Shown here: positions 1 to 10,973 of the stretch, piece after piece
Layout: each line of letters begins with the position of its first letter
Position numbering within the stretch: the stretch's first letter is position 1
Origin: a virus
Taxonomy: Duplodnaviria > Heunggongvirae > Uroviricota > Caudoviricetes
DNA: 12,342 nucleotides
Strand: one strand, 5' to 3'
Virus record (IMG/VR): IMGVR_UViG_2529293172_000014
Made by a program: the position numbers and the translations under genes
Notes under the pieces: generated by a model
What the model was told of the DNA's origin: nothing
The model's input: only the letters and a program-made list of their open reading frames with translations
Database searches by the model: none

Positions 1-46
1 CAGGTACACCAACGGGCAGTGCCGAGCCTTCCCCCAAACCAACGTT
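1..46 (-). CDS. 5' fragment of a second tail-fibre C-terminal cassette (runs off the window start)
   Basis: Minus-strand frame leaving crossover site 29..54 encodes NVGLGEGSALPVGVP, the same junction peptide that begins the 48..509 cassette. Bases 1-54 are a near-identical direct repeat of 473-526 (4 mismatches before the site's right arm diverges). Partial, no stop in window. Confidence 0.4.
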
Positions 47-54
47 TTTATGCC
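29..54. other. Invertase crossover site (hix/gix/cix-like), copy 1
   Basis: TTCCCCCAAACC-AA-CGTTTTTATGCC: 12+2+12 layout with imperfect dyad AAACC/GGTTT around a central AA, closely resembling the Hin site TTCTTGAAAACC-AA-GGTTTTTGATAA as I recall it. Overlaps the TAA stop (48-50) of cassette 48..509. Confidence 0.65.
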
Positions 55-509
55 GCCCTTACGATATAATTAAAGGCAATATTACGAGGACGGTTTTCAT
101 TAGCTGTTGGCACGACACGAGAGGCGTCGAATCCAAGGTCATCGGTTTTGCCTATAGCAGTTGTGTTATTCGGCATTCTCGCAGATCGTGTTCCTGCATC
201 ATAAAAAGCCCCTCTGATTGCATCAAAAGACATGCCAATCCCGCCATCTGCGAACCCCTCAATATTTCTTATTGCATCCCCCTGTGAAGATAATAATTGT
301 CGCCCGGCATCCACACCACGTCCGTCATCCCAGCCACGAATAAATTCACCGCGTAAATCCGGCAATTTATTAGTAGGGTAAGCCTTTGCCAGATTTGGGT
401 ACTTTTCAGAAGAAAATGCTGCTCCGTTACATTTCAGCCACCCCGTTGGCGGAGTGGCTGAGGGCCACGGAACAGGTACGCCAACAGGCAATGCTGAGCC
501 TTCCCCCAA
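48..509 (-). CDS. Promoterless tail-fibre C-terminal variable cassette (receptor-binding tail-collar domain); the listed start is an internal Leu codon, not a true start
   Basis: Translation contains GWLKCNGAAFSSEKYPNLAKAYP...LPDLRGEFIRGWDDGRG, the phage tail-collar / tail-fibre C-terminal signature seen in Mu S, P1 S and P2 H-type fibres. The frame is open through crossover site 501..526 (TTG at 509, TAA just upstream at 519-521), as expected for a segment expressed only when fused to a constant 5' gene part by inversion. Confidence 0.75.
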   Translation of the reverse strand: MGEGSALPVGVPVPWPSATPPTGWLKCNGAAFSSEKYPNLAKAYPTNKLPDLRGEFIRGWDDGRGVDAGRQLLSSQGDAIRNIEGFADGGIGMSFDAIRGAFYDAGTRSARMPNNTTAIGKTDDLGFDASRVVPTANENRPRNIAFNYIVRAA

Positions 510-526
510 ACCAACGTTTTAGTCTT
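501..526. other. Invertase crossover site (hix/gix/cix-like), copy 2, adjacent to the invertase gene
   Basis: TTCCCCCAAACC-AA-CGTTTTAGTCTT; left arm and centre identical to copy 1, same orientation (direct repeat, offset 472 bp). Sits 55 bp upstream of the invertase ATG, as gixR does relative to gin in Mu. Confidence 0.65.
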
Positions 527-580: not shown

Positions 581-1153
581 ATGCAAATTGGCTACATTCG
601 TGTGTCAACAAATGACCAAAACACAGATTTACAAAGAAATGCACTGAACTGCGCAGGATGTGAACTGATTTTTGAAGATAAAATAAGCGGAACAAAGTCA
701 GCCAGACCAGGCTTGAAAAAGCTGCTCAGAACGTTATCAGAAGGAGATACGCTGGTTGTCTGGAAGCTGGATAGGCTTGGCAGAAGTATGAAACACCTTA
801 TCACGCTTATAGAGGAGTTGCGGGAAAAAGGTGTTAATTTCCGTAGTCTGACAGACAGTATTGACACATCAACACCCATGGGGCGTTTCTTTTTTCATGT
901 CATGGGTGCTTTAGCAGAAATGGAACGTGAATTAATTGTTGAGAGAACACTGGCCGGACTGGCAGCTGCACGCGAACAGGGACGCATTGGCGGACGTCGC
1001 CCGAAGTTGACAAAAGAACAACATGAGCAAATAGCGAGGTTGATCGAAAATGGCTACAGCAGGAAACAGTTGGCAATTATTTACGATATCGGTGTATCGA
1101 CGATTTATCGTTATCATCCTGTAGAGAAGCGCCAAACTCAATCTGAGCTGTAA
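581..1153 (+). CDS. cin: Serine DNA invertase, Cin/Gin/Hin/Pin/Min family
   Basis: MQIGYIRVSTNDQNTDLQRNAL... with the catalytic Ser in GYIRVST, conserved VVWKLDRLGRS and MGRFFFHVMGALAEMERELI blocks, and a C-terminal HTH (GYSRKQLAIIYDIGVSTIYRY). ATG at 581 is preceded by AAAGAGG; the TTG at 572 in the ORF track is a less likely start. Symbol cin is chosen from the P1-like context; the gene could equally be a Min-type allele. Confidence 0.9.
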   Translation: MQIGYIRVSTNDQNTDLQRNALNCAGCELIFEDKISGTKSARPGLKKLLRTLSEGDTLVVWKLDRLGRSMKHLITLIEELREKGVNFRSLTDSIDTSTPMGRFFFHVMGALAEMERELIVERTLAGLAAAREQGRIGGRRPKLTKEQHEQIARLIENGYSRKQLAIIYDIGVSTIYRYHPVEKRQTQSEL

Positions 1154-1588
1154 TTCTAATGCCGCGTCGGTGTAATTTATCTTGATAGAATAGGTACATT
1201 TATCGCGCGGCACATCAATTCGATGTATCTAGCGCCTGCTGACCGCTAATGAAAACTGTTCTCGAAATGTTGTCCCTAGTCCGAGACTAGGGTATCACCT
1301 CTGGAAAGCATACGCAGAACCTTTTTTAACCCAGGGTGCCCAGCCTTTTTGCTGCTCGCCTTATTCGCAAAAATTAGCTCACATCCTGCGCTTTCAAGTG
1401 CTTTTCACTGCATAGCTGTGTTTTGTTCATTTGTCTATATGCGTACATAGCCTATTAGCATATTTTCTGCCCACTATCGTTATTTATTGCAAGCTACAGG
1501 TTTTAATTAACAAAACCAGTGTGTGTGGAAATCACAAAGTGCATACCGTTCTCAAATGTTGTTCAACTTACTGTTGTATAGGTAAAAA

Positions 1589-1852: not shown

Positions 1853-1900
1853 GTCTCTTATGCAACATAACCGGTTGAGAAGTTACTTTGCATACCATTA

Positions 1901-1920
1901 CCTCCTGACAACGTAGGAGG
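1901..1920 (+). promoter_or_regulatory. Hairpin that can sequester the Shine-Dalgarno sequence of the holin gene
   Basis: CCTCCT (1901-1906), 8-nt loop GACAACGT, AGGAGG (1915-1920). The 3' arm is the AGGAGG ribosome-binding site 6 nt upstream of the GTG start at 1927. Confidence 0.35.
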
Positions 1921-5206: not shown

Positions 5207-5568
5207 CACTATCAGCTATTGAGTTAATGGATCTCAGCGATAAGTTGGATGCTTTGATGTCCAAAGCGGCTACCGCGAGTGGCATGGAGTTGCTGGATAT
5301 CAGCGATGAAATTGACCAGATCATGCAACAGATGGGGTACGGTGTGTCCGGTGGCAGTAGTGGCGAGGAAAAACAACCTTCGGTACATGATGGTGTGCCA
5401 AAACTGGTTGCTGATTTCCTGGCTGATAAATTCGTCGATCAGAGCACCGATGCATTTATCGGTACCTTGCAGGATTTGAGTCAATATGTTGGCACATACA
5501 TCGACCTGGACCAGGTTAAACAGCACACGGCGGCATGGATAGCCGCCAACATTAAAGAGGCAGCATAA
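5203..5568 (+). CDS. ddrA: DdrA-like small Dar-operon protein
   Basis: 121 aa; ATGA overlap with darA. Contains an internal tandem repeat IELMDLSDKLDALM / MELLDISDEIDQIM. Confidence 0.55.
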   Translation: MTLSAIELMDLSDKLDALMSKAATASGMELLDISDEIDQIMQQMGYGVSGGSSGEEKQPSVHDGVPKLVADFLADKFVDQSTDAFIGTLQDLSQYVGTYIDLDQVKQHTAAWIAANIKEAA

Positions 5569-5580
5569 GGCGTAACAGGG

Positions 5581-8568
5581 ATGAGCTTAAGCGATCAGGT
5601 GGTAATGGCCACCAGCATAGAAACGCTGATCGAGCTGCTAAAGAACCTGCCCGGTTATGGGCGGGTTTCGTATGTGGTGACAGCGAAGGGAGACGAGGTA
5701 AAAACAGCGTTTGATATCGTCGATGCCTCAGCTCTTTTGGTATCCAATACTCTGGATGGGAAAATTAATCCTGACTATCCCCAGGAACTTCAGCCGCGCG
5801 ACCGGACCCGCGCATCCAGCCTTCTTCAGGTTAACCAGATATCCAAAGATTTGCGGCCTGCTCAGCTTACTGATTCCGGTTTATCCAGCCATGGTGCGCC
5901 GATAATTGGTGAGGACAATGCCGTTGAGTCAGGTAATGGACGGACCATGGGGATCATCAAAGCCTATCAGGACGGCAATGCGGATCGGTATCGTGAGTAC
6001 CTGATTGATCATGCGACCGAATTCGGCATACGACCTGAAAAGGTTGAATCAATGACGGCTCCGGTACTGGTGCGCCGCCGGTTAACCAAGGTTGACCGCG
6101 TTCAGTTTGCCAAGGACTCAAATATTTCTGATCTTCAGGAAATGGCAGCCAGTGAAAAGGCTTTTGTTGATGCCGACAGCATAACACCGGCGATGATGGC
6201 GCTTTTTAACCCGTCAGAAAGCGGAGATCTGCTTAGCCGCAGTAATGACGCGTTTATTCGCGGATTTATGACGCAAGTTGGTGCCACACAGGCGGCTGGC
6301 CTTGTAACTGAAGATGGGCGACCAACACGGCAACTTGTAGACCGTATACAAAACGCGATCTTTGCCAAGGCATATAAGGATGCGCGCCTGGTAAGGATGG
6401 TTGCAGAAGAACCTGATCCGGACATGCGTAATGTTCTGACGGCGCTTAATGCGGCAGCCAATGATTTTGTCCAGATGCAGGCTTTATCAGGAGAAGCGCA
6501 CAAGCAGGCTGTGACAACTATCGTTGATGGTATTGAAACAGCGGATAGCCTCGATAAAAAGGCGCTGGCGGCATTGAAAGATGCGGTAGACCTGGTAAGG
6601 CAATCGAAGGAGTCAGGCCAACATATTAACGATGTTATTGCTCAGGGGGATATGTTCAGCGAAACGGCCCCGGAAGTGAAAGCACTCGCGTTGTTCATCG
6701 TCGCGAATAACCGTAGCGCGAAGCGTATGGCCTCCGCCTTTAAGTTGATGGCTCAACGTATCAATGATGAGTTACAGCACCAGGGCCAGGCGCTGGGGGA
6801 TATGTTTGGCGGTGGTGATGTGTCGTTACAGGATATCCTTCGCCAGGTGTCTCAGGAACTGGAAAACGAAGGCATGCAAGGGATATCCGGCGGTCTTTTC
6901 GAGTCCGTTTCCGGCGGTAGTTACAATGGTGTTGCTCCATATACCAGTTTGCTATTACATCGGGCATCCGGCATCAAAGACATTATTCATCTGATCAGGC
7001 TGCTTTCCCGTACAGATCCCCAGGATGAACAGCTTGTACAAGTGCTTGCGCATTTTGTTCGAATGCCTGTTGCCGACGTGAAAAAATGGTGCCGATTATT
7101 CGGTATCAGCAATTCGTTACTTCGCGGCTTGTTAAATCACGCATCCTCCCTTGGGCGCGATGGCTTTGACGAGATAGCGCAGGCGATAAAAAACGGAGAT
7201 ATGCCACCAGCTATTGACTGGTTTTCCATTCGCCCAACCAGGGTGAAAGCATTCCTTAGCGCGGCGCATTCGGCATCACCATTGGCAGAAATGGTTCAGA
7301 GGTTGTCGCTCATATTCACAGACCATACCGCGTTGGGTGATCTGACTCTGGACGAGATGAAAGAAGCCTCCATTCAGTGGGCCGATCAACAAAATGAGGT
7401 TAACTCTGACTTCTTGCCAGCATTCAGGAAGGCCGTTAGTAAAGCTGATGATGCCCGTGGAATTCTGAGGGCATTTAAGGCATTGCAAAGTCAGGTTAAT
7501 AAACATGTCGGTGATATCGATGGGGTAACGGCGGAAGGCAGGGATATCCTTAAAGAGCACGGCATAACGCCAGAGTTTATTGATGAGATCAGGACTGATA
7601 TGCAGCGTGAGGTCGTATCGTCCCTGCAAATCGTAGCCAGAGCGTTGGCGGATGCTAATCCGAAGAGTGCGGCCATTGTTAACCGTGTTATTGGTGATAT
7701 TGAAGCATCGGAGGGCATGGGGGCGCTGAAACTCTTCCTTTCGCGAGCGTTTAATCCTAACGGCAATATTCTCCCCGGCATTATTGGTGAGGCTAAAAAG
7801 TATGTCAGCGAAGAAGAACTTGAGCATCTTGACCAACTACTTAAGCGATTCTCATATAACCCGCAGACACGCTGGCAAATGAATCAGCAAAGTATGGGTT
7901 CGGTCCACGAGAAAGTGTTATCTGCCATGAACAGTGCGATCGCCAACTCATCCGTATCTGAAGAAAAAGCTCTTGAGTGGGCCGACTCTTTTATCACGGA
8001 AGAAGTGGAAGAAGCCCGCGCTGGACAGAATGGTGGGATAGACCTGCGCAAGGAACTTGCTGATATTTATCGCCTGACCGGCGGTAAAATTTCGACCTTA
8101 TCAAAGGTGGTTCACCACCAGGGAAGGGCATATGCAAATATTAATGGTGTTGTTGCTGTCAATTTGAACGATGAAAATGCAAGTGCACTGTGGCACGAGC
8201 TGGGTCATCATCTTGAGTACAGTAACCTTGGTTTGTTAGAGAAAGCCCGGTCATTCCTGAAGGCCAATGTTGAAGGGGATAAGCCATCTTTCGTTAATAT
8301 CGGTGGGCGTGGCAAGCCTGAATGGTGCTTCAGATCTCGATTGAGTAATATTTATATGGCGAAGGTATACCCGCCAGCCTCAGTAAGTAACACCGGGAAA
8401 ATTCGGCAGAAATCACCGACTATTTCCAAAACGTCAGCAACGGAAGTATTCTCTATGGCTCTTCAGTTGTATCATGACAAAGAGGCCGCTGCCGCATCAC
8501 TGATGAATGGTGACGGATTGCTGGAACTGTTATTAGGTGTGGCAAAGGAGCTAAATAATGCAGATTAA
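5581..8568 (+). CDS. ddrB: DdrB-like large Dar-operon protein; carries an HEXXH motif near the C-terminus
   Basis: 995 aa, uninterrupted ORF in operon with the preceding genes. WHELGHHLEYS at codons 871-877 (nt 8191-8211). Size and position match recalled P1 DdrB. Confidence 0.6.
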   Translation: MSLSDQVVMATSIETLIELLKNLPGYGRVSYVVTAKGDEVKTAFDIVDASALLVSNTLDGKINPDYPQELQPRDRTRASSLLQVNQISKDLRPAQLTDSGLSSHGAPIIGEDNAVESGNGRTMGIIKAYQDGNADRYREYLIDHATEFGIRPEKVESMTAPVLVRRRLTKVDRVQFAKDSNISDLQEMAASEKAFVDADSITPAMMALFNPSESGDLLSRSNDAFIRGFMTQVGATQAAGLVTEDGRPTRQLVDRIQNAIFAKAYKDARLVRMVAEEPDPDMRNVLTALNAAANDFVQMQALSGEAHKQAVTTIVDGIETADSLDKKALAALKDAVDLVRQSKESGQHINDVIAQGDMFSETAPEVKALALFIVANNRSAKRMASAFKLMAQRINDELQHQGQALGDMFGGGDVSLQDILRQVSQELENEGMQGISGGLFESVSGGSYNGVAPYTSLLLHRASGIKDIIHLIRLLSRTDPQDEQLVQVLAHFVRMPVADVKKWCRLFGISNSLLRGLLNHASSLGRDGFDEIAQAIKNGDMPPAIDWFSIRPTRVKAFLSAAHSASPLAEMVQRLSLIFTDHTALGDLTLDEMKEASIQWADQQNEVNSDFLPAFRKAVSKADDARGILRAFKALQSQVNKHVGDIDGVTAEGRDILKEHGITPEFIDEIRTDMQREVVSSLQIVARALADANPKSAAIVNRVIGDIEASEGMGALKLFLSRAFNPNGNILPGIIGEAKKYVSEEELEHLDQLLKRFSYNPQTRWQMNQQSMGSVHEKVLSAMNSAIANSSVSEEKALEWADSFITEEVEEARAGQNGGIDLRKELADIYRLTGGKISTLSKVVHHQGRAYANINGVVAVNLNDENASALWHELGHHLEYSNLGLLEKARSFLKANVEGDKPSFVNIGGRGKPEWCFRSRLSNIYMAKVYPPASVSNTGKIRQKSPTISKTSATEVFSMALQLYHDKEAAAASLMNGDGLLELLLGVAKELNNAD

Positions 8569-8900: not shown

Positions 8901-9995
8901 TCACGAGAAACTCTTTTCTGATGTCAGCCAACAGTGCTCGTGCATATCTCTTGGTGGTTTTTCGACAAATGCCTCTTCAGCCACATCCTGCCAGGGGATT
9001 TGTTTAGCCCATTCAGTTATAGCGTTATGGTTTGCCGAGAATAACGGTATTGTATAGGCCTTCAGCCAGTCTAATGTGCTGGAGTTGTGTTTTTGAGCGT
9101 GATGTTTCGCATGGTGTTTGGCGATCACGATCGTAGGCACTACCCATTTACTACCGTCAGTCATTGTGAAGTGCATATTACGGGGAACAGATGACTTTTC
9201 CATCAACTCCCGAATCCCTGGGAATTTCCCCAAGATCAATCGGCGATATTCATCGCTATTGCGCCCACCAAACTCTTTGGCTTTGAATTCAAGATATGCT
9301 TCAGAAACGAGAGGTGAATCCTCTGTGTTTAGAGTTATCGCCGTGAAAAAACCAGCAGGATTGTTTTTACTATGGGCCAACCGGTGATGCGAATCATAAA
9401 AGTACCCTTTCTCGCGTTCCGATGGTTTCGACAGCAACAGCAGGCGCGAGTCATAATTGGTTAAATTGCCAGTTATCACTGCATGAGCGCGATCGCTGAT
9501 TTCCGCCGAGTTAATAACGATGAAAAGATCGTGCGGTCCAGTAAAACCAGCCAGAGACTCTTCGTTATTCAGACAATAGGTTATATAGACGCATCCCCAT
9601 GTTTCACTGATATGCACCAACCCTTTGTCAGGGTGTATTCTGAAATAATTGCCAAGAAAAGTGTGTTTTTGGGTAACTCGCTCCCAATAACGGAACATAT
9701 AGTCAATTATTGTTTTTCGACAATCGTTAATCGCAGGAGAAACAACCACTGTACGGGAACACGAATACAGTATTGTTTGCAGGATGCTAATCACTGCCAC
9801 AATAGAGGTTTCCCCAATACCATGTGGTGTGGTGGCAGTGATTTTGGCTCCGGTGTTCTTTATCGCGTTAATAATTTTTGCTTGATGAGGTGTTAACTCA
9901 ATATCAAGCAACTCTTTTGCTGCCAGTTCCCAATTGTCTTTATACCGTTCTATCAGTGCTAACCAGGCAGATTCATTCTGTATACGATTAATCAC
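8901..9995 (-). CDS. Hypothetical protein (364 aa); degenerate P-loop-like GIGETS segment and a His-rich HAKHHAKHHAQKH motif
   Basis: Long minus-strand ORF; GTG start at 9995 with GAGGTGG RBS; overlaps the upstream gene's stop by 8 nt. No motif I can assign with confidence. The layout (LTPHQ...GIGETS...DLFIVINSAE...ITGN) loosely recalls an ATPase domain, but the Walker lysine is absent. Confidence 0.6.
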   Translation of the reverse strand: MINRIQNESAWLALIERYKDNWELAAKELLDIELTPHQAKIINAIKNTGAKITATTPHGIGETSIVAVISILQTILYSCSRTVVVSPAINDCRKTIIDYMFRYWERVTQKHTFLGNYFRIHPDKGLVHISETWGCVYITYCLNNEESLAGFTGPHDLFIVINSAEISDRAHAVITGNLTNYDSRLLLLSKPSEREKGYFYDSHHRLAHSKNNPAGFFTAITLNTEDSPLVSEAYLEFKAKEFGGRNSDEYRRLILGKFPGIRELMEKSSVPRNMHFTMTDGSKWVVPTIVIAKHHAKHHAQKHNSSTLDWLKAYTIPLFSANHNAITEWAKQIPWQDVAEEAFVEKPPRDMHEHCWLTSEKSFS

Positions 9996-10776
9996 TTTCC
10001 ACCTCTTCCGTGGTGTTTTCTTGCAGTTCTGTTAATGCAGCACGACATAGGTTCCGGGCATTGGCTATAGCCACACTTTTGACTTCATCCGTCATCGTGC
10101 AGGTAATGTACTGATCGAGTTCTTCAGCGCGGATGATGCTTTTGCCAATCAGAAACTGTATTTGCCATAGCAGATCGGCATCCATAATCAGAATTTCTGC
10201 CGGGCCTTCAGGGCCAGCCGGGAAGGAAACATAAGACTGTTTGCCCAGGCCGACAACTCGACAACTTGCTTCAAGAATTGCGCGCTTGAGGTCTGACTTT
10301 ATAACGGAAACAGGTTGATTTTCACCAGTGATTACGCCGTTGACATGGAAAGGCATGTAGCTTGAAATACGCTCTACTTTCCACACGCCAGCAAGCGATC
10401 CTTCATGCAGCACAATGGGGGTAACCGCGAGTTTCATCTCACCATATAACTGCTGGCAGATAGCTGGATTGCTGAATACATCTAAAGGCTCACATTCAAA
10501 CAGCGGCGCAATCTGCATGAGGTCCATCATGGTCATCCCTGGGGTACGAGCAGTAATGAATTTGCGCATACCAGTATCCATTGCGCTCCAGATTGCTACA
10601 CCATGCTTTTTGCTCACTTCTTCAGTAAAGCCAAGGTGGCACATGATGGTTTTTTCGATAGCCAGATCAGAGATAGAAACCTTTTCGCCAGGTACTCCAT
10701 CATTATTGATGGTCACTTCGACACTCTGGCCATTACGTAGGCGGTATTGAATGGTTTTAGTATTTTGTGCTGTCAT
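9988..10776 (-). CDS. Hypothetical protein (about 263 aa from ATG 10776)
   Basis: Long minus-strand ORF, translationally coupled to the downstream 8901..9995 gene. Start placed at MTAQNTK (ATG 10776) because the track's extension to 10896 would overlap the small upstream ORF 10791..10973; starts at 10890/10896 cannot be excluded. No recognisable catalytic motif. Confidence 0.5.
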   Translation of the reverse strand: MTAQNTKTIQYRLRNGQSVEVTINNDGVPGEKVSISDLAIEKTIMCHLGFTEEVSKKHGVAIWSAMDTGMRKFITARTPGMTMMDLMQIAPLFECEPLDVFSNPAICQQLYGEMKLAVTPIVLHEGSLAGVWKVERISSYMPFHVNGVITGENQPVSVIKSDLKRAILEASCRVVGLGKQSYVSFPAGPEGPAEILIMDADLLWQIQFLIGKSIIRAEELDQYITCTMTDEVKSVAIANARNLCRAALTELQENTTEEVESD

Positions 10777-10790
10777 AGTCTTTTCTCTGC

Positions 10791-10973
10791 TTAAAAACTG
10801 ATGTATTGCGTCTTCAGGTGGGTTAGGAATGTTTTCCCACCAGCGAAAGCAATATCTCGTGGTGTTCTGTTCGTTAAAAACGCGTGCCATTGCCAACTTT
10901 GGCGTTTTTTAGCGAGTTCGTGCTTTTGTTGGCGTTTGGACCACCGCTTTTCTTTCAGTCGTTTTTTACTCAT
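10791..10973 (-). CDS. Possible small basic protein (60 aa), tightly packed between ssb and the next gene
   Basis: MSKKRLKEKRWSKRQQKHELAKKRQ...; starts 5 nt after the ssb stop and ends 15 nt before ATG 10776. Weak RBS. Could instead be a non-coding spacer; an 8-bp inverted repeat AAAAACGC...GCGTTTTT (10876-10883 / 10903-10910) lies inside it. Confidence 0.3.
   Translation of the reverse strand: MSKKRLKEKRWSKRQQKHELAKKRQSWQWHAFLTNRTPRDIAFAGGKTFLTHLKTQYISF

Follow-up and report, generated by a model that had tools for sequence, protein, structure and literature searches.

The window (the whole 12,342-nucleotide stretch of viral DNA analyzed here, IMG/VR record IMGVR_UViG_2529293172_000014) is, on sequence grounds, a piece of a P1-like (Punavirus, IncY-type) phage-plasmid carrying a Min-type multiple inversion system, and the short reading frame at its left end, which we call cassette W, is almost certainly a working cassette of that system. 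Overall, we lean toward the view that this is a Min-type module on a P1-like phage-plasmid for which we infer that a single Tfa protein encoded within the array chaperones all of its fiber tips. The Min switch was described in 1990-92 and is already known, so that W is not a new element and carries little weight as a discovery. The chaperone logic of the array (one Tfa for up to nine tips, encoded antisense in half of the arrangements) nevertheless raises a modest question that is open to experiment, and it is relevant to work that swaps the tips of engineered phages and tailocins, which generally presupposes the need for a cognate Tfa. For those reading database records, annotation pipelines label the cassettes as “phage tail protein” genes with invented TTG or GTG starts, and also place the arrays in arbitrary arrangements that can be mistaken for strain differences.

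Cassette W starts in one crossover site and stops in the next

The features of the left end of the window are as follows (L004 and L013 are records of related plasmids, described below).

1..40, minus strand: 5′ end of the neighboring cassette (GLGEGSALPVGVP...), cut at the window edge
29..54, plus strand: internal 26-bp crossover site, TTCCCCCAAACC AA CGTTTTTATGCC; the outer half (43-54) is the last codons of W plus TAA, and the inner half is the start of the next cassette
42..513, no strand assigned: invertible module of 472 bp, from site centre to site centre, which moves as a unit (L004 versus L013)
48..512, minus strand: cassette W fiber-tip segment, 154 codons (coding 512 to 51, TAA 50 to 48), without a start codon of its own
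501..526, plus strand: invertase-proximal 26-bp crossover site, TTCCCCCAAACC AA CGTTTTAGTCTT; the inner half is the first codons of W, and the outer half is fixed flank
581..1153, plus strand: serine DNA invertase of the Min/Pin type, 190 amino acids
1285..1461, minus strand: truncated second invertase gene, N-terminal 59 codons

Read from the crossover site, the minus strand from 512 to 51 encodes 154 amino acids (GLGEGSALPVGV...NIAFNYIVRAA; in translation, GLGEGSALPVGVPVPWPSATPPTGWLKCNGAAF…ENRPRNIAFNYIVRAA) and then reaches TAA at 50 to 48. A preliminary description made from the sequence alone had reported a very compact receptor-binding segment, and W is indeed such a 3′ segment, with neither a start codon nor a promoter. 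We confirmed its open reading frame at 48..509 on the minus strand, the 153 amino acids of which are counted mechanically from an in-frame TTG inside the W frame, whereas the count from the crossover site is 154. Three further observations made at that stage were also borne out: the stop codon of W lies inside the next crossover site (TAA 50 to 48, within the outer half-site 43-54 of site 29-54), the next cassette begins at once (it runs from 40 to 1), and the segment contains a tail-collar domain (Pfam PF07484, E 3e-15, residues 11-58). We rejected the idea that W is a stand-alone small gene because it has no RBS or start and because in-frame fusions exist.

Both sites consist of 12-bp half-sites flanking a central dinucleotide, as do the crossover sites of the Gin/Cin/Pin type (gix-like 26-mers), and they belong to the same family as the published e14/p15B-type 26-bp site GAGAGATAAACGTT GGTTTGGGGGAA (PMC4134206, Table 3). 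They lie in direct orientation, and their 20-mer core occurs twice, against 0.01 occurrences expected by chance. The outer half-site of 29-54 reads GCA TAA plus AAACG, and its inner half-site reads GGT TTG GGG GAA, the first four codons of the neighboring cassette. The repeats flanking W (48 nt each, at 1-48 and 473-520) are 92% identical. The 40 nt of the left neighbor do not reveal its type, since cassettes have conserved 5′ ends that are mosaic from one plasmid to the next. The window holds two direct sites only, its edge cutting the array; plasmids 98-99.7% identical to it carry nine sites and nine cassettes in both orientations.

The intact invertase matches Pfam Resolvase (E 2e-51) and HTH_7 (E 3e-15) and is 82% identical to PinE of e14. 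A shufflon of the R64 type was rejected, since the recombinase of the window is a serine invertase and its sites are gix-like 26-mers. The R64 shufflon (Rci) is alike in having clustered, overlapping invertible segments that exchange the C terminus of an adhesin, but it uses a tyrosine recombinase and other (sfx) sites, acts on a pilus-tip protein, and has no sequence relationship to the system described here.

The array is the known Min switch

Positions 1-1300 of the window are 99.6-99.7% identical to the plasmids p64EVA-6 (L003) and pMCR_SCKP-LL83 (L004), with L004 at 99.7%. The invertible segment of pMCR_SCKP-LL83 has been reported to match p15B min with 92% coverage and 99% identity (PMC5786510), and this published match, the only sequence link to p15B min, supports the assignment to the Min system together with the P1-like backbone and the PinE-like invertase. 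The preliminary description had thus portrayed the cassette correctly but had not recognized it as part of the known Min system of p15B and P1-like plasmids (PMC5786510). The element in the window is matched by 232 plasmid records, and the Min switch is widespread among IncY and P1-like plasmids from E. coli, Klebsiella, and Salmonella.

The Min system of p15B, the subject of work by Sandmeier, Iida, Arber, and co-workers in 1990-1992, reportedly has six crossover sites and 240 isomers, provides alternative 3′ ends for one fiber gene, and is said to have a truncated invertase gene (psi-win) beside min. The window and its relatives resemble it in their P1-related backbone, Pin-like serine invertase, and same-family 26-bp sites, in having several promoterless 3′ fiber segments for one constant 5′ part, and in the truncated invertase beside the active one. 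They differ in that the relatives of the window have nine sites, nine cassettes, and eight modules, against six sites in p15B. The product (number of modules)! × 2 equals the 240 isomers reported for p15B if there are five modules, and with eight modules it comes to 80,640, a figure that is arithmetic and not a measurement.

The two-site switches of Mu (G/Gin), P1 (C/Cin), and e14 (P/Pin) share with the array the invertase family, the type of site, and the position of a crossover site inside the fiber gene at the boundary between its constant and variable parts. Unlike the array, they have two sites and two tips, each tip with its own Tfa/U gene. In the Min array, by contrast, many tips lie head to tail with one Tfa, and the 3′ end of a cassette doubles as a half-site. 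StfE of e14 is of the same tip type as cassette R of the array.

Inversion isomers among related plasmids

For counts of whole arrays, we used six cleanly sequenced relatives (L003, L004, L007, L009, L013, and L014). Records L001, L008, L010, and L011 were left out because of many homopolymer frameshifts (CTTCCC for TTCCCC) and split invertase genes; the frameshifts are probably sequencing noise, since the invertase and other genes are split in these records as well. All of the relatives used have nine sites and nine cassettes of 143-169 residues except for L014, which has seven sites. The nine sites comprise one at the end of the constant part of fiber gene S (outer half GGTAATCAAGAA), seven internal ones, and one beside the invertase. 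Seven of the modules hold a single cassette and measure 439-514 bp each. The eighth measures 1,581 bp; in it, two convergent cassettes accompany the sole tail-fiber assembly gene (X→ tfa→ ←R). The arrangements are given below, arrowheads indicating orientation.

L003: A> B> C> X> tfa> <R <F <G <H <W
L004: A> F> B> G> H> C> R> <tfa <X <W
L013: W> F> R> <tfa <X <B <C <H <G <A
L007: A> G> F> R> <tfa <X <B <H <C <W
L009: J> B'> H> X> tfa> <R <A <F <G <W
L014: W> X> tfa> <R <C <B' <F

The six records gave six different arrangements. L004 and L013 are the 97,393-bp plasmids of two isolates, and their arrays, each 4,924 bp long, contain the same eight modules with 0 mismatches, changed in order and orientation between identical flanks. 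The 472-bp W module lies at opposite ends of the two arrays in opposite orientations, and their hybrid sites reveal reciprocal exchange at the central AA. The identity of the modules, the identical flanks, and the hybrid sites are therefore direct evidence of conservative site-specific inversion. Inversion at the site centers is thus real, as demonstrated in relatives rather than in the window's own source. In L013 and L014, W continues the reading frame of the constant part of S (Sc), and the fusion is annotated as a full-length fiber.

These arrays point to the following mechanism. The W module is a gene fragment with no promoter or start codon of its own, and the serine invertase (581-1153) recombines inverted pairs of 26-bp sites at the central AA/TT; when the module comes to lie behind the constant 5′ part of S, the product is an in-frame fiber ending in the 154 residues of W. 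The isomers found in relatives demonstrate these steps. Each cassette contributes its stop and last codons as the outer half of the next site, and because cassette 3′ ends double as half-sites, the cassettes can be packed head to tail with no spacer or per-cassette chaperone gene. Every tip is most likely served by the one tfa gene, of the TfaE type, that the central module (X-tfa><R) contains, because the collar N terminus and the C-terminal RPRNIAFNYIVRA motif are common to the tips and only the middle insert differs. With the central module oriented as S, tfa would lie downstream and would be cotranscribed from the late promoter upstream of R/S.

Several features of the arrays were noted in passing. 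Most matching plasmids have W beside the invertase; its fusion to the constant fiber part occurs in only about a dozen. The arrangements are far from random, which may reflect rare recombination at the invertase-proximal site, with its distinct outer half CGTTTTAGTCTT, or a common ancestry of the records. The first ~200 nt of the same cassette type differ between plasmids (L003, L004, L007, L009, and L014; for example, L004 6020-6230 versus L003 8526-8320), and cassettes G and W each occur in WPSATPP…EKYPNLAK and WPLETPP…EMYPKLAK versions. Such mosaic 5′ ends indicate that cassettes undergo homologous exchange or gene conversion with one another as well as site-specific inversion. The constant part of S ranges from ~494 to 899 amino acids among near-identical plasmids (L003 2641-5022, L004 3539-5020, L006 3297-5993, and L014 5747-8161) through tandem copies of an ~80-residue motif (…TAQDATTTQKGIVQLSSDTNSTSE…), and part of this variation may be assembly collapse.

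Architecture of the fiber tip and selection on W

From its N to its C terminus, W consists of ~77 collar-forming residues, ~63 residues of variable insert, and 14 conserved residues (RPRNIAFNYIVRAA). In an alignment of 12 cassette sequences, columns 1-77 were almost all invariant, as were 12 of the last 14 residues (RPRNxAFNYIVRA), and the middle 50-90 residues could not be aligned. Residues 6-84 of W and its C-terminal NIAFNYIVR match the tip of T4 gp37 (PDB 2XGF), in the structure of which the C terminus returns to the collar domain. Because the conserved ends match the gp37 collar and its returning C-terminal strand, it is most likely that the two ends of a cassette make up a single collar domain and that its variable middle is the receptor-binding part. 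The likeness to gp37 extends to the N-terminal collar domain and the C-terminal ...NIAFNYIVR strand, both present in W; the differences are that the insert of W is short (~63 residues) and lacks the HxH motifs of the gp37 needle, which cassettes X, C, R, and F have. We considered the short tail fiber of phiTE (9cuy) as a structural reference, since W matches it with an E of 7e-32, but rejected it because the chain is modeled at residues 3-92 only and lacks this domain. An NCBIfam search with cassette W, Tfa, and cassette R found no match.

The HxH motifs, which resemble the iron-binding repeats of the gp37 needle, read HYH in X, HRH in C, and HAH in both R and F (L004 cassettes), and they are missing from W, A, B, G, and H. 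Two structural classes of tip may thus coexist in the array.

The preliminary description had raised the possibility that the cassettes are degenerate remnants. We rejected this reading: in nine loci, W is intact and free of frameshifts and premature stops; it differs from the copy in the Mu-like phage SKA5 by 43 nucleotides but by only 6 amino acids (dS 0.41, dN 0.02, dN/dS 0.05); and L004 and L013 demonstrate inversion isomers. Among array copies of W, dN/dS is 0.13-0.17.

The window has no chaperone gene, and the array has one

As had been proposed, W has no dedicated U-type chaperone gene. A tblastn search in six frames with three Tfa types found no Tfa- or U-like open reading frame either in the cassette module (42-513) or in the whole 12.3-kb window (best E 0.29), and Pfam matches of the ten large open reading frames of the window were to lysis and antirestriction families only, with no Tfa. 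The preliminary description had offered two explanations, that the collar domain folds without a dedicated chaperone or that a shared chaperone lies elsewhere. The second is the better supported, since relatives have one tfa per array, although its service to W is something that we infer, and chaperone-free folding is less favored. The gene was invisible at that stage because it lies beyond the left edge of the window.

In each of the six cleanly sequenced Min-type relatives, there is exactly one Caudo_TAP (TfaE-type) gene, located inside the invertible DNA after cassette X. Its product has 203 amino acids and matches Pfam Caudo_TAP (PF02413) with an E of 3e-30. The gene was found in 116 plasmid records at 118 places; it is single copy in about 114 of the 116 and at least 99% identical in 90 records. 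Only cassette X directly precedes a Caudo_TAP gene in the relatives, in the Mu/P1 manner of a tip followed by its own Tfa.

As North et al. (2019) are cited in PMC9608196, Tfa proteins combine a variable N-domain that binds the fiber tip with a conserved C-domain. The N-domain of the Min Tfa is identical to that of e14 TfaE at 79 of 105 positions. TfaE-type N-domains that are 57-79% identical to that of the Min Tfa follow six tip inserts, namely, those of Min X, e14 StfE (R type), HK106, KP12 (a Klebsiella phage), EtG (an Erwinia phage), and 813R1, and all six are paired with the same collar and C-terminal motif. The HK106 insert is related to that of W (50/83 identity). The TfaE-type N-domain therefore does not covary with the insert, as would be expected if it recognized the conserved collar region, and this supports the idea of one Tfa for nine tips. 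Tfa C-domains are 76-82% identical between Min and e14, SKA5, HK106, KP12, and 813R1 and less so in EtG (41/91). The Tfa N-domain also has distant similarity to T4 gp38 (31% identity), and a PDB sequence search with the Min Tfa found no match.

The closest relatives of W outside arrays have a different partner. In SKA5 and in the P1-like plasmid pF1055-2, W is 90.7% identical at the DNA level and 95-96% identical at the protein level (6-7 of 154 residues differ), and it lies, as in the window, beside a Pin-like invertase. There, however, its TAA overlaps the ATG of a 197-amino-acid Tfa gene of its own, whereas in the window the TAA runs into a crossover site, and the N-domain of that Tfa is identical to that of the Min Tfa at only 30 of 93 positions. 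The fact that W directly precedes its own Tfa gene in SKA5 and pF1055-2 implies that the absence of one in the array is a derived feature. Weighing these comparisons, we put the chance that the single TfaE-type protein of the array is the chaperone of W at even or slightly better.

How W might be folded when tfa points the other way

Because tfa sits in an invertible module, the geometry of the array leaves it antisense to S in one of every two possible arrangements, among them all those that express cassette R. Natural Sc-W arrangements include one with tfa antisense (L013) and one with tfa sense (L014). The motif AAGTTACTT-N3-TAnnnT, derived in this analysis, occurs upstream of the lydA-like holin gene (window 1880-1905, plus strand) and upstream of R/S (L003 2146-2171) and probably marks P1 late promoters; no copy of it was found in the array or its right flank, and none is aimed at tfa from the right. 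A scan for sigma-70 promoters gave 10, compared with 12.0 ± 3.5 in shuffled sequence, and a terminator scan gave numbers at or below the shuffle expectation; both results are uninformative rather than negative. In the antisense arrangements, the fibers may be defective, tfa may be expressed independently of orientation or Tfa supplied in trans, or the tips may be Tfa free.

The bolder proposition, that one TfaE-type gene serves nine collar-type tips, some of which (R at least) are made while tfa is antisense to the fiber operon, is tentative, and we would sooner doubt it than accept it. If it is true, such tips assemble without a cis-encoded Tfa or use an orientation-independent or trans supply, and array-type switches have broken with the one-tip-one-chaperone rule that holds for Mu, P1, P2, and lambda. 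The shared Tfa has to be set against the 30/93 N-domain of the Tfa that accompanies W in SKA5 and pF1055-2, a hint that pairing may be specific to the tip, against the antisense position of tfa in half of the arrangements, including that of L013 with its Sc-W fusion, and against the lack of a late-promoter motif or an above-chance sigma-70 promoter aimed at tfa from the other side.

The same antisense arrangements would be explained if collar-type tips such as W folded and trimerized with no phage Tfa, or with host chaperones only, and tfa were needed by X alone. Cassette R and the others are intact even though half of the arrangements, including every one in which R is expressed, put tfa antisense; L013 carries Sc-W with tfa antisense; and the reduced array of L011 has no detectable tfa. 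L011, however, appears decayed, with broken cassettes, and in every simple two-site system that we examined (e14, SKA5, pF1055-2, HK106, KP12, EtG, and 813R1), a collar-type tip is followed directly by a Tfa gene. Moreover, T4 gp37, which has the same collar and C-terminal motif, requires gp38. We therefore regard Tfa-free folding as unlikely. Still less probable, in our estimation, is that Tfa is available in every arrangement, either because tfa has its own transcription, perhaps from a promoter in the conserved 5′ part of X, or because coresident prophages provide Tfa in trans. The conserved 5′ portions of the cassettes do contain weak sigma-70-like hexamers, and that of X, immediately upstream of tfa, is no exception (L013 9963-9934), but such promoter-like matches are no commoner than in shuffled sequence. 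The 76-82% identity of most of the Tfa C-domains compared above (EtG excepted) would suit a supply in trans, as would the ability of lambda Tfa to replace T4 gp38, but such a supply would hinge on the prophage content of the host.

W could also be a silent passenger, either a reservoir for gene conversion or a tip that has lost its SKA5-type Tfa and would yield defective fibers if expressed. The different, dedicated Tfa of its closest relatives outside arrays, the exchange between cassettes revealed by their mosaic 5′ ends, and the position of W beside the invertase in most records and behind Sc in few would all fit. The dN/dS values of 0.05 against SKA5 and 0.13-0.17 among array copies, the open frame in all nine loci, and the in-frame Sc-W fusions in deposited plasmids argue against such a role, and we give it very little credence. 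A shared array Tfa remains the reading that we prefer for W.

Other genes and remnants in the window

The remaining large open reading frames of the window encode two LydA-type holins, LydB, DarA_N/Hdf, DarA, and DdrB, i.e., P1 lysis and antirestriction functions by Pfam. Downstream of an hxr-like gene, the adjacent minus-strand open reading frames 8901-9995 (364 amino acids) and 9988-10896 (302 amino acids) have no Pfam match. In L010 (15085-16293), L011 (14608-15756), and L012 (5676-6884), a TnpB/IS insertion separates ddrA from the ddrB-like gene; the corresponding place in the window (about 5568-5581) lacks it.

The truncated invertase gene at 1285..1461 is 63% identical to the intact invertase (tblastn E 2e-20); it is a remnant, lies outside the working switch, and resembles psi-win, the invertase remnant reported to adjoin min in p15B. 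Between it and the intact invertase, positions 1237-1272 (plus strand) form an inverted repeat with 77-112 and represent the remnant of a fiber-cassette 3′ end (LTANENCSRNV, compared with PTANENRPRNI in W), which is probably debris of an older inversion system.
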